DNA of 64,000 bases from Macrostomum lignano (Eukaryota). The notes under the pieces are model-generated. The model was not told the origin of the DNA. It made no database searches and was given only the letters and a program-made list of their open reading frames with translations. The stretch covers positions 7,159 to 71,158 of the forward strand of contig NIVC01000771.1 in assembly GCA_002269645.1 (NCBI GenBank), written 5' to 3'. Positions within the stretch are counted from its first letter, which is position 1, and the number at the start of each line of letters is the position of its first letter. Shown here one piece after another: positions 6,215-64,000 of this stretch. Made by a program: the position numbers and the translations under genes.

Positions 6215-6429
6215 CAGCGGCCGTCACTGCTTGCACACAGCGGCCGTCACTGCTTGCACACAGCGGCCGTCACTGCTTGCACACAGCGGCTGTCACTGCT
6301 TGCACACAGCGGCCGTCACTGCTTGCACACAGCGGCCGTCACTGCTTGCACACAGCGGCCGTCACTGCTTGCACACAGCGGCCGTCACTGCTTGCACACA
6401 GCGGCCGTCACTGCTTGCACACAGCGGCC
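6215..6429. repeat. 23-bp tandem repeat (~9 units) formed from the last codons and stop of the Ly6 gene
   Basis: Unit cagcggccgtcactgcttgcaca. On the minus strand it reads ...GTGTGCAAGCAGTGA, i.e. VCKQ*. Confidence 0.95.
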
Positions 6430-6737
6430 AGCAGGGCCAGAGCCGCGGTCAGCAGGAGGCCGCTGGGACCGAACTGCCTCGGCGAAGAGTTGCACAGGTC
6501 GGTGTTGCAGCACCAGGTGCCGTTGAAGGCCAGGCAGGCAGGGGCAGCCGAACGGCTGATAACGCCAGCCACTTCAGCCTTGGTACAGTAGTTGCCGTTG
6601 GCTGTCGGAGTGCTGCTGGAGACGGAGCTGCAGTCTTCGCAGTCGTAGCACTTGACGGCGTCGGCTGGAGCGGGCAGAAGGCAGACGGAGGCCAGGAGGC
6701 CGAGTGTTGCCAGGCGGAGCACTTGGTGAGGCTGCAT
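6408..6737 (-). CDS. GPI-anchored Ly6/uPAR (three-finger, CD59-like) protein, copy A, intronless, 109 aa
   Basis: Hydrophobic signal peptide, KCYDC start, CCxxDLCN end motif, small-residue omega site (NSS) and hydrophobic C-terminal tail. Confidence 0.9.
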   Translation of the reverse strand: MQPHQVLRLATLGLLASVCLLPAPADAVKCYDCEDCSSVSSSTPTANGNYCTKAEVAGVISRSAAPACLAFNGTWCCNTDLCNSSPRQFGPSGLLLTAALALLAAVCKQ

Positions 6738-6780
6738 TCTGACGGCAGGTTAGGGTTAGGGTTGCTGCTTTGAGAGTTGA

Positions 6781-7076: not shown

Positions 7077-7242
7077 TAACCCCAGATTAGCACAAACCCC
7101 CAGATTAGCACTACCCCCCAGATTAGCACTTCCCCCAGCTTAGCAGTACCCCCAGATTAGCACTTCCCCCAGATTAGCTCTACCCCCCAGATTAGCAGTA
7201 CCCCCAGATTAGCATTATCCCCAGATTAGCACTACCCCCAGT
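7077..7242. repeat. ~20-bp tandem repeat (cccagattagcactacccc)
   Basis: About 8 imperfect units visible. Confidence 0.9.
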
Positions 7243-58120: not shown

Positions 58121-59248
58121 ATCAACCCAAAAAAGACTGGATGCCGTACTCCTGCCAAAGCGAGTGGCGCTGGACCTGAAGGTGGCACCTGCTTCCACCA
58201 CTGTTGAACTACCTGCTTCTATAGTGCGTTTCAGGTCGCGTCTGCAACCGCGTCATTTGAGTCGACTGAGAGCTATCTGGAGTCAACTGTTGTGTTGGAT
58301 AATTAGAAGGCATCAAGTGTTTTATAAACACGTAAGTAGAAGTGGTTTAAAGTGGTTTAGGTAACTCAGTACTGTCATTTGTTCTATGTTTTATGGTTAC
58401 ATCGAAATTTTTCTAATCAATTATATGCTGGTTTAATAATGCGCTCTCTAACATACATGTGAAACTGTTGTGAAACTGTTGATTCATGCAAGCTAAACGT
58501 AGTCTATGTTAATAAACGGATTAAAGGGGGAAAGTATGTCATGGTACAATGTCGGCCATAGACTGGGTTTTAAACTATGCAACAGGAGACAATTTCTTTC
58601 CACGACCACAGTCTGTAGAAGTTTTCGAGTCGAAAAATGTGATGTATGGCGTAAAATATCTGTGCTCATTAATGGAACACATCAGTGAAGTGTTTTCCCT
58701 CTCGTAGCTATACAAGAATCATTGCATTCGCGTCACGCGTATCACAGGCACGTATTTGACACGTGGTCACTTGTTATTTGTAATGATTTATCGCCCGACA
58801 GGGATTGAGCATTGAAGAAAGTCTCGACATCCGTGAGCACCAGTATTCAACGTCAAGTGTCGGACCAATGACCACAGTATGTCATAACAGGACAATAAAC
58901 GATCGTGTAATTTTTTAGGAGAGACTCCTGGAATAAATACACTGCAAAGATAGGAAATATCGTTCTTTTATCACAAAATGTAGGATTCATACATCGATTT
59001 TGCGTGCTTAAATGGTCTATGCACGAGTGCGCGCAGCGCACGAGTGCCATAGACCATTTAAGCACAAAAAATCGATGTATGAGTTGCATTGTATTACGTT
59101 GGCTTAATACTTTAGATGGCGCGTTAGATGCACGCTCAGTTAATTTGTCTTAACCATAGACAAAAATGCGTGAAAGGCACGCAAGTTGATTGAGTGTTGC
59201 GAAGAAGGGAATAAGAAGCTGTTAAATTAAAATCACTTGTGAGAGAAT

Positions 59249-59707
59249 ATGGCTGAGCCACCAACTAAAGTCAGACTTCTGAATCTGCGCAAATTTCCAA
59301 ACGAAATGATTTCCGGCTTGTCCACCAATGAGATTGACGACATTCTGAACGAGCCTGATAATCTACCGGAGTCGGCAATTGATCGAGAAGAGGAGGATCT
59401 TCTGGAGGCACTTTTCAAGAAGATACCTGACGAAGAAGCTGAACTACTTGAATTGGAACAGCTCGTTTCCGAAATCGAGGACACCGCTGCTAGTAAAAGT
59501 GTGACAAAGGCTACCGAATATTATGTCGGTAAGTTGCAGAGCTTCATGGAGAACCATCCGTCAGTTCAGCGTGATTTGGCGACTTCTACACCGCGCGAGA
59601 TCGACAGTCTATTGCGATACTTCTATGGCTCACTTCGCAAGAGGAATGGCGAATACTTTGCTCCAGCCACGTTGATTTGTATCCTCATTCGCTTTCCCTG
59701 TCAATGA
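59249..59707 (+). mobile_element. Crypton YR N-terminal fragment (KCTD1/ZMYM-like domain), truncated
   Basis: SVTKATEYYVGKLQSFME...REIDSLLRYFYGSLRKRNGEYFAPATLICI matches the LxxFYxxxRKxxGxxYxPxSL pattern. Similarity ends near 59690. Confidence 0.75.
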
Positions 59708-60409
59708 TAGGTAATCGTCTACGCAGTCTACCTTGTTTACACAGTTCCCTGTTATTCGTTCGTTGTACTTGTAGCAGAAGTATACTTATTAAAATATACT
59801 CACTTTCCGTGCATTACACGCACGCGTTAGACGCACGCTTGTTGCCTTTACTCAGATAGAAAATTGCCATAGACACCTACATTAGACGCACAGTAAATCG
59901 TGCATCTAACGCGCGCCAGCGTGATACAATGATTGCATTCGACCTGGGGCAGTGAAGATTACCATTGTTTAGTTTAGCATGTACATCATGTGAGAAGTGT
60001 CAAACGGTTCGCTAACCCGTTGATCCACAAATGCTGTCCATACGAGTACATGCATACGCGTTCGAATAAGATTACACGTCCGTACCCAAATAAGGTAAAA
60101 AATTCCATTAAATGAAACATGTGCATGCACATTATATACTCGTGTAAAATAATTTACAATAAATACATTAAAGCAGTATGCTAAGAGTAAAGAGTCAACA
60201 GGTCATTTGGTAATAACTGAATTTTTTATTGTACGAACGAAACTGTTATTGAAACAATCAATATGTCAGCATATTTAAACAAGCTATATATTTCATGACA
60301 GTATGCATATGCATATATCTAAGTAATGTATATTCAGGAAAGTTCCAGGCTCCACCAATCCAGCCCGGTCTTCTCCCGCAGGCGACTCTGCCGCAGCAGT
60401 GCTGGGTGG

Positions 60410-60532
60410 CAGCGGCCGTCACTGCTTGCACACAGCGGCCTTCACTGCTTGCACACAGCGGCCGTCACTGCTTGCACACAGCGGCCGTCACTGCTTGCAC
60501 ACAGCGGCCGTCACTGCTTGCACACAGCGGCC
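60410..60532. repeat. 23-bp tandem repeat (~5 units) at the end of Ly6 copy B
   Basis: Same unit as 6215-6429. Confidence 0.95.
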
Positions 60533-60840
60533 AGCAGGGCCAGAGCTGCGGTCAGCAGGAGGCCGCTGGGACCGAACTGCCTCGGCGAAGAGTTGCACAG
60601 GTCGGTGTCGCAGCACCAGCTTTTGCTGGTGGCCACGCAGGCAGGGGCAGCCGTGCGGCCGATGACGCCAGCCGCTTTAACCTTGACGCAGTAGCTGCCG
60701 CTGACAGTCTGGGTGCTGCTGGAGACTGAGCTGCAGTCTGCGCAGTCGTAGCACTTGACGGCGTCGGCCGGAGCGGGCAGAAGGCAGACGGAGGCCAGGA
60801 GGCCGAGTGTTACCAGACGGAGCACTTGGTGAGGCTGCAT
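60511..60840 (-). CDS. GPI-anchored Ly6/uPAR three-finger protein, copy B, 109 aa
   Basis: Paralogue of 6408-6737 with the same cysteine frame, signal peptide and GPI tail. Confidence 0.9.
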   Translation of the reverse strand: MQPHQVLRLVTLGLLASVCLLPAPADAVKCYDCADCSSVSSSTQTVSGSYCVKVKAAGVIGRTAAPACVATSKSWCCDTDLCNSSPRQFGPSGLLLTAALALLAAVCKQ

Positions 60841-62179
60841 GCTGATGGTAGGTGATGTCTCACTGAGGCGGGCTGCTTTGAGTGTTGGCTTAAATAGACG
60901 CGACCAGCCTTCCGCGCCAACCCCAGGTACCGAGGTGCAGTGTGAGCGTGTTGTCTATGCTCAGCCAGTTTAGAATCATTGCAGCTTGCAGCAACCCCGG
61001 CTTGGCCCAGCGGAGGGGGGGTTGATGCCGCTTGCACCCCGCGATTCCACCCCGGCTTGGAAGGACAGACCAATCGGAGAGCGGCCTGAGAACAGGCACG
61101 TGGTGCTACCCATGGGAAACAGCCACCCCAGGCCCAGGGCCAGCCGCAAGTCTGATTTGAACGGCTCCAAGACCGGCACAGCTAAACTAAAACCGCCATC
61201 AAATGAGTTTTGTGGTCAAATGATGCCAAATTGAGTCACATGTTATAGTTGGGCTGGGGCTGGCTTTTATTGAGCGTAGCGAGGCGTCAGACAGTGCTGA
61301 CGCAATCTAATTGGCGGTGAATTTAGTTCAGTCAAGAGTTGATAAAACTCGTTTTTTGAATGGATAGTAACAGCTCTGAACAATCAAATGAAAAAACTGC
61401 GCTTCGAATAAAAAGGTCGGGTTGAAAACGACCGAGTTTTAAAGGTAAAATGTGCCTACAATCAAAGACACATTCACAGATTTTGGCGCATGACAAGCAG
61501 CTCAAGAAACAGCTCGCAAATAACCTGAGATCCACTTAAGTAAAAGTTACAATGAAAGAATGCTTTTTATCTTCAGCTAATGGATTATTTCCAAGGGCCT
61601 AGAGATCACAAAGTTAACTAAGTATACTCAGCAACATTGAAAAGCCGCCATCACAGAAGATTCCGTCTGTGGTCGCCACTTTTGAGAGTGCAGGTAAAGT
61701 CTCTCAATCCTGGGAGAGTAGAAGGCATGAGGGGGCTTCTGGACAAAATTTTTCACGTCCTCCATAATCCACCTAAATCCATCCATATTATCCCCGACAG
61801 AATCAGAAAAAAGGGGGGTCGCACTCGCTCCGAAAACGTCCTCCATAATCCACCTAAATCCATCCATATTATCCCGACAGAATCAGAAAAAAGGGGGGTC
61901 GCACTTGCTCCGAAAACTTCGAACATAATCCTATTAAATCCATCCATATTATCCCTGACAGAATCAGAGCATTATCCCTGACAGAATCAGAGCATAACAG
62001 TAGGACACCTGTTATGCTCACTGACACCGACATCCACCCATAGCATGTTCGAAACAATCAGAAAATAATCTGCATTCTTCTCCCCACATTCAATTTGCAA
62101 AGCGAAACCACATCCCTAAGACTTTAAATCATCAGCGCAGGGTCCTCACCCTTTGAAAAAATATAAATTCTCAATAAAA

Positions 62180-62416
62180 ATGTTTCCAGTTGTCTCTCCA
62201 GGTTCTTATTACAAAACGCACGAGCCTAATTACAAATCCAAGTACCGATGCAAACTTGAATGCAGCGAGTACATGAGAAAATATTGGCCCGACGTTGATA
62301 TCAATGTCCCTAATATTAATCAAGCACTTAAATCTCACTGGTTTGAAAAACACGGAGTAGTCATTAACAATTTTGACAGCTATTATAACTTTGCTGAAGT
62401 TATAAGGCAGTTGTAG
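62180..62416 (+). CDS. Small hypothetical ORF (78 aa from the ATG), probably viral/Polinton
   Basis: ATG at 62180 in an aataaaaATG context like that of the penton start. Convergent with the penton gene. No family recognised. Confidence 0.4.
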   Translation: MFPVVSPGSYYKTHEPNYKSKYRCKLECSEYMRKYWPDVDINVPNINQALKSHWFEKHGVVINNFDSYYNFAEVIRQL

Positions 62417-62477
62417 TAGCCAACTACACGGTTGTACCTGGCGGCTTATATCGTAATTTTACAAGTCTGAAGACGAC

Positions 62478-63335
62478 TCACATTCTCTCAATAATAATTG
62501 TTAGCACAAACTCTTCCCCGTTAAAATCGACACCAACTCCATCCTCTGTTTCAAACTGCAGAACGATTTCATGTATCTCTCTATTACTCAGAATCACTCT
62601 TTTCACGGGGTTTGGCTTTTGAACAAGCATTTTGCCACCAGCAACAGAGTTTGAAATGTTAAAAAGTATGTTGGTTCGTTTGCCTTTGAATATCCAATCA
62701 TGGCTCAGATTGCTACGAATTAATATATTCAAACCTTTGACAATGTCAGCGATATTTGGCGCCAAGTACATACCGGATATTAGCCGGGACACAGCAACAG
62801 TGCCAGGCGCCTGCAGCGGGCTTTGGTCTGTGGCGCCACCATAAACTCTCTTTTCAAATCCCAACTCGCGATACCAAGTGCCATCTTTAAACTCTACCTC
62901 TGCGTCCTTATGAACTTGCAAGATAACTCTCATGACAGTTAGATCATAAGTTAATCTAACAGGGAACAGTTTATTTTCTGGTTTGCTTTCATCCGGTATC
63001 TCAAAATGCTTTCGTTTAGTGAAGACGTTCTCCAAGAAGTAATTATAAGTATCCACGCTCTGTGTGCTGACAGGAAATATCACAACCTCTGTTGTAGTAC
63101 GCTTCCATTTGTAATAAAACTTGTTATTTTCCGCTGTCACATTGGGAACATTTGACCACCCAGTGAAATCATTGAGATAGACGTGGTAATTCGCCTCGGG
63201 ATCCAAACGAAGTGGTTGCTCCAATTTTTGAATGAAGATTCCGTTTGACTCAGTAATGCGACCCGCTACAGTGATTGGAATGCTCTCCTTAGAGTGTGAA
63301 ACAATGTTGTTTAGTCTTTCGGCTATGGCTTCCAT
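62478..63335 (-). CDS. Polinton/adintovirus minor capsid protein (penton), 285 aa, open
   Basis: LEQPLRLDPEANYHVYLNDFTGWSNVPNVTAENNKFYY, ELGF, NIADIVKGLNILIRSNL, FKGKRTNILFNI, GVDFNGEEFVLTIII follow the adintovirus penton pattern. Confidence 0.82.
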   Translation of the reverse strand: MEAIAERLNNIVSHSKESIPITVAGRITESNGIFIQKLEQPLRLDPEANYHVYLNDFTGWSNVPNVTAENNKFYYKWKRTTTEVVIFPVSTQSVDTYNYFLENVFTKRKHFEIPDESKPENKLFPVRLTYDLTVMRVILQVHKDAEVEFKDGTWYRELGFEKRVYGGATDQSPLQAPGTVAVSRLISGMYLAPNIADIVKGLNILIRSNLSHDWIFKGKRTNILFNISNSVAGGKMLVQKPNPVKRVILSNREIHEIVLQFETEDGVGVDFNGEEFVLTIIIERM

Positions 63336-63357
63336 TTTTTTATTGAAAAAAAATTAT

Positions 63358-63981
63358 TCAAACTTTACTAGACGAGTTGTTGATCATATTGACCTTGATC
63401 TTCCTCTCAAATGCATAGATAATAAACAGATCAACAGCCGTTGCGGCACCAAATTCTTTCCGCTCGATATTAGTCACAATGTTAACAGGGCTATTGTCTG
63501 TAGGCATTTGTCTAGCAGTCACATCAACACCAAATATTGGATATAGTTTTTTATACTGCAATGTTGTCAAAACAATACCGTTATTCTCTTTGACAGCCAA
63601 GTCCGACAGTTCATTGTAAAACTTACTAATCTTGTTCTCCGAGAAATTCCCATTTTGTGGCAATGCAGGGTATAAATTGTCACTGATCTCATGTTGAATC
63701 GATCGAATGTTTCCATGTAGATATCTACCTACATTAGTTGTATTCCTCATAGTGACAATAATGTACCTTGGATTGCTACAGGAGCCTTCTTTAATGCAAA
63801 TATTGTGTCTTGCGTCATTCCGCTCATCTCTGCACATATAAGCTGTATAAGCAACATCAATGTCTTTCTCAATCGCCTTCAAGTATTCAGCTTTGAGTGC
63901 AGTCTTGGGCTCAATAATTTCTAAGTACAGCTCCACGCCAGTTAGCTTAATCTCCATCGATGTATGATTGGCCCCGACCAA
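63358..63981 (-). CDS. C-terminal half of a Polinton double-jelly-roll major capsid protein
   Basis: NPRYIIVTM, NLYPALPQNGNF, LYPIFGVDVTARQ, DLFIIYAFERKI. Lies directly upstream of the penton gene. An in-frame TAG at 63988-63990 precedes it, so this copy may be disrupted. Confidence 0.72.
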   Translation of the reverse strand: MVGANHTSMEIKLTGVELYLEIIEPKTALKAEYLKAIEKDIDVAYTAYMCRDERNDARHNICIKEGSCSNPRYIIVTMRNTTNVGRYLHGNIRSIQHEISDNLYPALPQNGNFSENKISKFYNELSDLAVKENNGIVLTTLQYKKLYPIFGVDVTARQMPTDNSPVNIVTNIERKEFGAATAVDLFIIYAFERKIKVNMINNSSSKV

Positions 63982-64000
63982 ATTCCTCTATTCGATCATC

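Follow-up and report, generated by a model that had tools for sequence, protein, structure and literature searches.

Polintons (Mavericks) are described (PMC4028283; 10.1101/2023.08.22.554363) as elements of 13-25 kb with terminal inverted repeats (TIRs) of 100-1500 bp and target-site duplications (TSDs) of 5-8 bp; they carry genes for pPolB, an RVE integrase, an ATPase, a protease, a double-jelly-roll (DJR) major capsid protein (MCP) and an adjoining penton. We analysed a stretch of 64,000 nucleotides from Macrostomum lignano (assembly GCA_002269645.1, contig NIVC01000771.1, forward strand, positions 7,159 to 71,158; G000:C771:7159-71158), here called the window. The contig stops at window base 64000, and window 61717-64000 is the capsid end of a Polinton truncated by the contig end. 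As one more Polinton end this would be ordinary, the element being of a known kind; the structure of the population to which it belongs is unusual and makes the question of a virion testable. We consider it probable that the copies in this genome form a recombining, trans-mobilised population with two capsid cassettes on a shared polymerase pool.

The same insertion is complete on contig C1330 (175990-193044, 17,055 bp), where it lies between identical 6-bp duplications matching window 61711-61716; on contig C1023 we found its empty site, with the hexamer present once. An earlier reading of the window from its letters alone (the sequence-only reading) had set the start of the element at 61715; the actual start is 61717, and 61711..61716 is the TSD, i.e. 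host DNA. The TIR (61717..62416, ~700 bp, starting with 5'-AG) matches both ends of sibling copies and shares ~96% identity with its counterpart at the far end of this insertion. Within it, subterminal tandem repeats occupy 61755..61995 (80 bp x2.7 at 61755-61968; 23 bp x2.1 at 61948-61995), their copy number varying between sibling matches. Over window 60000-64000 we observed no substitutions and four indels relative to C1330; farther out the identity is 97.4%. The perfect duplication, the empty site and the lack of substitutions over these 4 kb bear out the recent insertion proposed earlier, while the open penton frame, which had been taken as the sign of recent age, is weak evidence of it, since 128 of 136 scored penton copies in the genome have no internal stop. 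The integrase, polymerase and protease genes of the C1330 copy are each split by frame breaks in the assembly, and the insertion may be non-autonomous.

We regard the membership of this family among Polintons as virtually certain. Its exact 22-nt termini were counted 346 times in the genome (0 for the reversed control). The scored penton matches, which are the 136 best-scoring of 597 candidates, fall into 41 with 95-100% identity and 95 with 79-81%; terminus and copy counts include loci assembled more than once. Such numbers of termini and penton matches speak against a chance resemblance. According to C1330 and 10 further contigs, the gene order begins with a terminal repeat, a variable region, PLA2 (reverse), integrase, pX-like core peptide, pPolB and protease, and continues with two unknown open reading frames (ORFs), ATPase and two more unknown ORFs (reverse), MCP, penton and the other terminal repeat. 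In the siblings, the integrase matches PF00665 (rve; 34.5 bits, cut-off 32.6) with D, D and E motifs visible, and the A32-like packaging ATPase matches PF04665 (Pox_A32; 26-29 bits, cut-off 22.8). The adenovirus-like protease, constant in its position after the polymerase, has a PF00770 (Peptidase_C5) match slightly below the cut-off (E 5.5e-4, 20.1 bits, cut-off 21.3), and sibling ORFs have Pfam matches to PLA2 (50 bits) and Adeno_PX (30 bits).

The termini, at the outer ends of TIRs of ~700 bp, read AG...CT, which is a Polinton trait. The 6-bp TSD is perfect in 23 of 32 end pairs (5/6, 15/21, 1/1 and 2/4 in the separate samples, with C276 and C1652 representing a single insertion); there was a one-base difference in three pairs and no match in six. 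Thus the sequence-only reading was right to place the element with Polintons/adintoviruses, and the features by which it proposed to check this were located, i.e. pPolB, RVE integrase, ATPase and protease in siblings, and the matching TIR and 6-bp TSD in the C1330 copy. With a length of 17 kb, such repeats, such a duplication and the same gene set, the family resembles described Polintons, and all their hallmarks that lend themselves to sequence analysis are present. We observed no relatives in IMG/VR. The terminal repeats of the single elements C110, C782 and C570 differ by 8-16% despite perfect TSDs (C110 84.5%, C782 88% identical); therefore, terminal-repeat divergence is unusable for dating these insertions.

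The polymerase of the siblings and of the C1330 copy matches PF03175 (DNA_pol_B_2) with 39-60 bits (cut-off 25.8), a weak match (60 bits over ~390 positions). At E<=1e-20 there are 6,835 relatives; thousands of relatives share 42-48% identity with it, the named ones coming from marine invertebrates, an insect and a snake. The polymerase also carries an endonuclease VII-like insert, which is not new, because homing-endonuclease inserts are known in Polinton polymerases (PMC11161782). An open polymerase frame of at least 1,250 aa was present in only three of 148 scored matches. A programmed frameshift or a shared intron was considered and rejected, as the breaks are scattered, with no common position, and so few frames are full length. 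We found no group I introns in 14 loci of the family.

In the window the capsid genes are two minus-strand frames separated by 22 bp (63336-63357); these frames, a small convergent ORF and the repeat-rich end agree with the anatomy as first read. The class A penton (minor capsid protein; 62478..63335, 285 aa) is open, and the upstream frame (63358..64000) is the 3' half of a class A DJR MCP gene cut by the contig end. Pfam gave no useful match for the window penton or the MCP half. For the penton, a fold model built with 11 aligned relatives (mean predicted local distance difference test score, pLDDT, 59) had mavirus and Sputnik pentons as top Foldseek matches (E 4.6e-4 to 4.3e-3). In VIA-align, rows 1-7 were all viral capsid, penton or penton-derived chains (Z 9.0-6.4), with Sputnik at Z 6.4 (root-mean-square deviation 3.6, 113 aligned) and unrelated rows beginning at Z 5.3; in BFVD the matches were viral minor capsid proteins, starting from E 8e-10. 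Both ends of the protein are predicted to form the jelly roll, with a domain inserted at about residues 59-198. A penton profile collected 507 relatives at E<=0.001, mostly of 225-290 aa. Structure prediction, suggested in the sequence-only reading as a check, thus agrees with its assignment of the 285-aa protein as a penton. Its assignment of the upstream frame holds as well: the 431-aa MCP of a sibling, 99% identical to that of the C1330 copy, scores 33.7 bits against PF21738 (DJR; cut-off 27), and on this sequence match the MCP is a double-jelly-roll protein. Only 11 library matches of the MCP exceed 40% identity, the next ones being at 22-24%.

We observed that the capsid genes of the family exist in two classes, A (285-aa penton and 431-aa MCP, as in the window) and B (287 and 428 aa). 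Between the classes, where synonymous sites are near saturation and the proteins differ little, the synonymous divergence (dS) is 2.4 and the replacement divergence (dN) 0.12 for the penton, and 1.4 and 0.10 for the MCP; the dN/dS ratio is 0.05-0.07 between classes and 0.10-0.20 within them (unique sequences of classes A and B: 12 + 16 pentons, 9 + 18 MCPs). By these ratios the capsid genes are under purifying selection. The penton stretch that diverges most between classes is residues 161-200 (43-63% identity). The two-class stretch is ~2 kb long and comprises the penton and the MCP minus its first ~70 codons. Among 37 painted copies, chosen partly for intermediate identity, there were 18 of class A, 14 of class B and five mosaics.

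The polymerase does not follow this division. In a 900-nt polymerase stretch, the median difference is 1.3% within A, within B, and between A and B alike. Mapped on the polymerase tree of 27 copies, the capsid class requires 8 changes, compared with 8.7-8.8 for shuffles, and 199 of 500 shuffles were as low; capsid class is, on these sequence comparisons, unlinked from the polymerase tree. We infer an old capsid dimorphism borne by one young, freely recombining backbone.

A second unusual feature is the presence of three insertions with inverted capsid genes at both ends, on C1652 (11.3 kb), C633 (13.1 kb) and C1584 (8.5 kb). Each end of these fold-back elements has a terminal repeat, a penton and all or part of an MCP gene; they are without an integrase gene, and of the polymerase no more than the final ~90 codons are left. 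The arms (~4.7 kb in C1652, 4.8 kb in C633 and 1.75 kb in C1584) are 99.5-99.9% identical, with the exception of one 746-column piece at 97% in C633. Could such elements, and much of the mosaicism, be assembly artefacts produced by fold-back long reads and collapsed repeats? There are indeed many assembly indels in the family, and several contigs end inside copies. Fold-back reads would, however, mirror the flanks as well, whereas the flanks at all three sites are unique and carry perfect direct 6-bp duplications; the arms differ by a few changes; and one derivative was assembled twice on separate contigs, the C1652 insertion being present again on C276 with 99.7% identity. We consider an artefact of this kind very improbable.

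A shorter form of the same design is found in the window insertion itself. Behind its far terminal repeat lie the 3' 176 codons of a class B penton, with a DNA identity of 73% to class A and 96-98% to class B, and the same fragment is held by the far end of the C819 copy; in C33 the corresponding piece is 23 penton codons. As judged from these identities, the window insertion is a recombinant, with class A capsid genes near one end and a class B penton fragment at the far end. The C1330 and C819 copies have this fragment in common and have different target duplications; therefore, the recombinant was inserted at least twice.

Copy-back defective viral genomes keep terminal signals, lose replication genes and depend on helpers. 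The fold-back elements resemble these genomes, and non-autonomous derivatives, in keeping terminal signals without replication genes; they differ from copy-back defective genomes in that their capsid genes are kept and present twice, and in that they sit in the genome between target duplications. Kapitonov and Jurka reportedly described in 2006 a model of Polinton replication along with non-autonomous Polintons. A definition of non-autonomous elements is given in PMC6431247.

Taken together, the distribution of capsid classes and the fold-back elements likely mean, as far as sequence comparison can tell, that the copies recombine and help each other to move in the manner of a virus population. 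Recombination among the well over a hundred copies likely takes place during joint replication, and the integrase and polymerase of one copy likely serve others. By analogy with known Polintons, the integrase would excise and insert the element, pPolB would use protein priming to copy it from its ends, and packaging would be carried out by ATPase, protease, MCP and penton. Template switching during copying could give rise to mosaics and to fold-back (copy-back) genomes in which both ends are capsid ends: a polymerase that started at the capsid end would switch template and regenerate that end. The fold-back genomes would keep the terminal signals, and a helper integrase could insert them in trans.

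A different account of the same element is that of a purely intracellular transposon that makes no particle now, with the mosaics and inverted arms being products of gene conversion or repair after integration. Conversion of one end would produce terminal repeats differing by up to 16% in one element despite a perfect duplication, as in C110 and C782; hundreds of near-identical copies are at hand as templates; and evidence for particles is none. The dN/dS values within and between the capsid classes argue against this account, because they indicate that capsid function was selected during the recent spread. The same holds for one recombinant design at two sites with different target duplications, as well as for the near-identity of the capsid-only arms with duplications intact at three sites. 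We consider a transposon-only explanation unlikely.

Several observations weigh against a trans-mobilised, recombining population as well. Neither particles nor free linear DNA nor mobility were observed. Open polymerase frames are rare, and their scattered breaks fit long-read indels and also decay. Ectopic gene conversion between chromosomal copies could also yield mosaics. With 3 of 24 inner branches starred, the resolution of the polymerase tree is poor; therefore, the lack of clustering by capsid class is weaker evidence than the equal distances. The three inverted derivatives were mostly selected for their inverted capsid genes, and in pairs drawn from the terminus list a full fold-back appeared only once in 25; thus, fold-backs are a minority. 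A perfect duplication is missing in 9 of the 32 end pairs, the copy counts include duplicated assembly loci, and the penton model is of modest confidence, with a pLDDT of 59 and template-modelling (TM) scores below 0.4.

Whether present-day animal Polintons form particles is an old open question. Here, there are well over a hundred young insertions with open, selected capsid genes, and public data from seven studies of the same organism; therefore, particle purification and long-read tests are feasible. Two old cassettes on a polymerase pool of such low diversity, together with integrated fold-backs, are population traits that fit a virus more than a transposon.

Compared with the Polintons described earlier, the family stands apart in three respects: its capsid proteins are far from library relatives, with no Pfam match for the penton; a protein-coding gene lies inside both terminal repeats; and two capsid cassettes share one backbone. 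Adintoviruses exchange virion modules between lineages (PMC8502044). Like the Alpha and Beta adintoviruses, the family lives in an animal host and combines an integrase with adenovirus-like virion genes; a PLA2 of the parvovirus type and a core peptide resembling pX are further shared features. In Alpha-class virion modules PLA2 and pX are typically fused as one gene, PLA2X (PMC8502044), whereas here PLA2 (173 aa) and the pX-like protein (157 aa) are encoded by separate genes on opposite strands, either side of the integrase. The PolB of Alpha adintovirus is of the archetypal pfam03175 type, while Beta adintovirus has a divergent PolB, a Terrapene-class capsid and GasderminX and cupiennin genes; in both classes PolB has an N-terminal OTU domain (PMC8502044). 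The polymerase studied here is divergent from PF03175, matching it weakly, and carries an endonuclease VII-like insert. The Pfam scan named no OTU domain in the polymerase, and no gasdermin among the ORFs scanned, five of which were without assignment.

Re-association of replication and virion modules is known from nematode Polintons, with pPolB1/pPolB2 swaps (10.1101/2023.08.22.554363), and from the module mosaicism and exchange between lineages in Polisuviricotina (10.64898/2026.10.13.758929). The present family is similar in this respect. The difference is that in those cases the polymerase is swapped, or the swaps are between distant lineages, whereas here the capsid cassette has two states in one young population of one genome, with mosaics within genes.

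A preprint mentions Orthopolintovirales-related insertions in a rhabditophoran. Judged by the listings, the literature on flatworm Polintons/Mavericks contains nothing on this family, in line with the undescribed lineage suspected in the sequence-only reading; the supplements of 10.1101/2023.08.22.554363 and 10.1101/2025.04.19.649669, as well as Repbase, may list these elements. In the same listings, with preprint supplements and Repbase outside their scope, we found neither a two-state capsid cassette within one young Polinton family nor integrated capsid-only fold-back (copy-back) Polintons.

The sequence-only reading had further noted a TAG at 63988-63990 as damage to this MCP copy. We found that the triplet is flanked by single-base indels, near 63972 and 63993, which shift the frame, and that it is out of the MCP gene frame. 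None of the 10 sibling contigs used for comparison has either indel, and the TAG is most likely not a nonsense mutation. Both indels fall in the last 30 bases of the contig, with a stretch of ~20 bases between them out of frame. The three bases recur in C1330 and C819, where the MCP is open (431 codons in C1330). Short-read contigs from all four runs agree with the siblings at the first indel, and the pieces listed end at the second. Since copies are pooled in them, a rare allele is compatible with these contigs; being assembled contigs covering the element, they hold no information on transcription. The TAG is probably an assembly error at the contig end, to judge from these alignments.

The corresponding rival, that the window copy is a damaged provirus with a real stop in its MCP, has on its side the TAG itself and the frame breaks of the C1330 copy in integrase, polymerase and protease. 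It is hardly credible given that the TAG is outside the frame of the gene, that two of the four indels distinguishing the window from C1330 are near the contig end and absent from all 10 siblings, and that the first of them is absent from the pooled contigs of all four runs.

The small convergent ORF (62180..62416, plus strand, 78 aa from Met) lies within the terminal repeat, hence at both ends of the element. That it is a gene of the terminal repeat had escaped the sequence-only reading, as had the two capsid classes and the capsid-only inverted derivatives. An ORF of 78-80 aa is present in 46 of 57 copies, and its dN/dS is ~0.30 (22 variants on 43 synonymous sites, 34 on 191 replacement sites); because of its conserved length in most copies and this ratio it is very likely a gene. 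The product weakly resembles one half of RNase T2, the one with CAS II. It matches PF00445 with 18 bits (cut-off 26) over positions 66-101 of 188, and a match at E<=0.1 was seen in only 7 of 32 copies. All three sequence matches in PDB are RNase T2 proteins, weak ones (E 0.012-0.051), and the atlas score for RNase T2 is 0.92, at low recognition; a profile of the 32 copies had no PDB matches. In human RNase T2 and actibind, the part to which the ORF aligns is the helix and CAS II region. The ORF differs from RNase T2 (PF00445, including viral members) in its length of 78 aa, in the absence of the CAS I motif with the first catalytic His, and in the second His, which is often Tyr. In the 53 copies with a CAS II motif, whose His is invariant in RNase T2, KHG occurs in 25 and KYG in 28 (four of the 57 copies have no motif). 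Since the protein has 78 aa, no CAS I and Tyr in place of the second His in 28 of 53 copies, a complete T2 enzyme is, by sequence, impossible. The structure model consists of three helices (pLDDT 61), with a best structural match of Z 4.0, and a search with it listed no T2 chains in 48,161 PDB representatives or in BFVD. No T2-like terminal-repeat gene was found among the literature matches listed.

One could tentatively propose that the product is a catalytically dead, T2-derived RNA-binding microprotein. Recent capture from a host RNase T2 gene was considered and rejected: host exons were found, and they have no similarity to the ORF. One sibling insertion ends ~1.7 kb from a host RNase T2 exon (G000:C4945:21541-23466; also C3540 and C2606), probably by chance, since the ORF is without similarity to the exon. 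A more far-reaching picture, which we find rather doubtful, is that of a living endogenous virus population: a single recombining backbone with two balanced, serotype-like capsid types that differ most in penton residues 161-200, copy-back genomes that supply a double dose of capsid genes and are both packaged and integrated in trans, and the RNase T2-derived microprotein as an early decoy or a counter-defence factor that binds RNA.

Additional variation was seen among copies of the family. The ORF adjoining the MCP (orf404, L014:7867-9078) is multi-state (56-99% identity when copies are compared), and two forms of the ATPase occur (87% versus 99-100%); neither is linked to capsid class. Many copies contain nested insertions of several kb (C175, C217, C422, C741, C1122, C2829), which in C175 include a reverse-transcriptase element and in C2829 are one Polinton within another. 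In the C1330 and C819 copies, the variable region has a tRNA-like match of 71 nt (36 bits; L016:6691-6761 and L013:6600-6670), possibly the head of a short interspersed nuclear element. A 2.2-kb insert within the terminal repeat of the C819 copy encodes a QRICH1-domain ORF of 392 aa (E 1.2e-4; L013:3581-4756); an ORF of the window (59243-59707, plus strand) has a weak match to the same domain (E 0.01). We presume that such QRICH1-domain ORFs could belong to Crypton-like tyrosine-recombinase elements.

On the host side, the Polinton sits in a short, very high-copy repeat (window 61620-61716; 957 candidates) that resumes beyond the far side of the C1330 copy. The host flank (window ~59900-61710) is duplicated near the start of the window, at G000:C771:4617-7851, with 91% identity over 1.8 kb, and there is no Polinton there. 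An intronless ORF at window 60514-60849 (minus strand) has a signal-peptide-like start, a cysteine pattern ending in CCDTDLCN and a hydrophobic tail, and resembles a Ly6/uPAR (CD59-type) host gene, with a weak Pfam CD59 match (E 0.28); a second copy, 82% identical, is at window 6411-6743 (minus strand). The stretch at window 1-57000 is dense in tandem and microsatellite arrays (62 rows).

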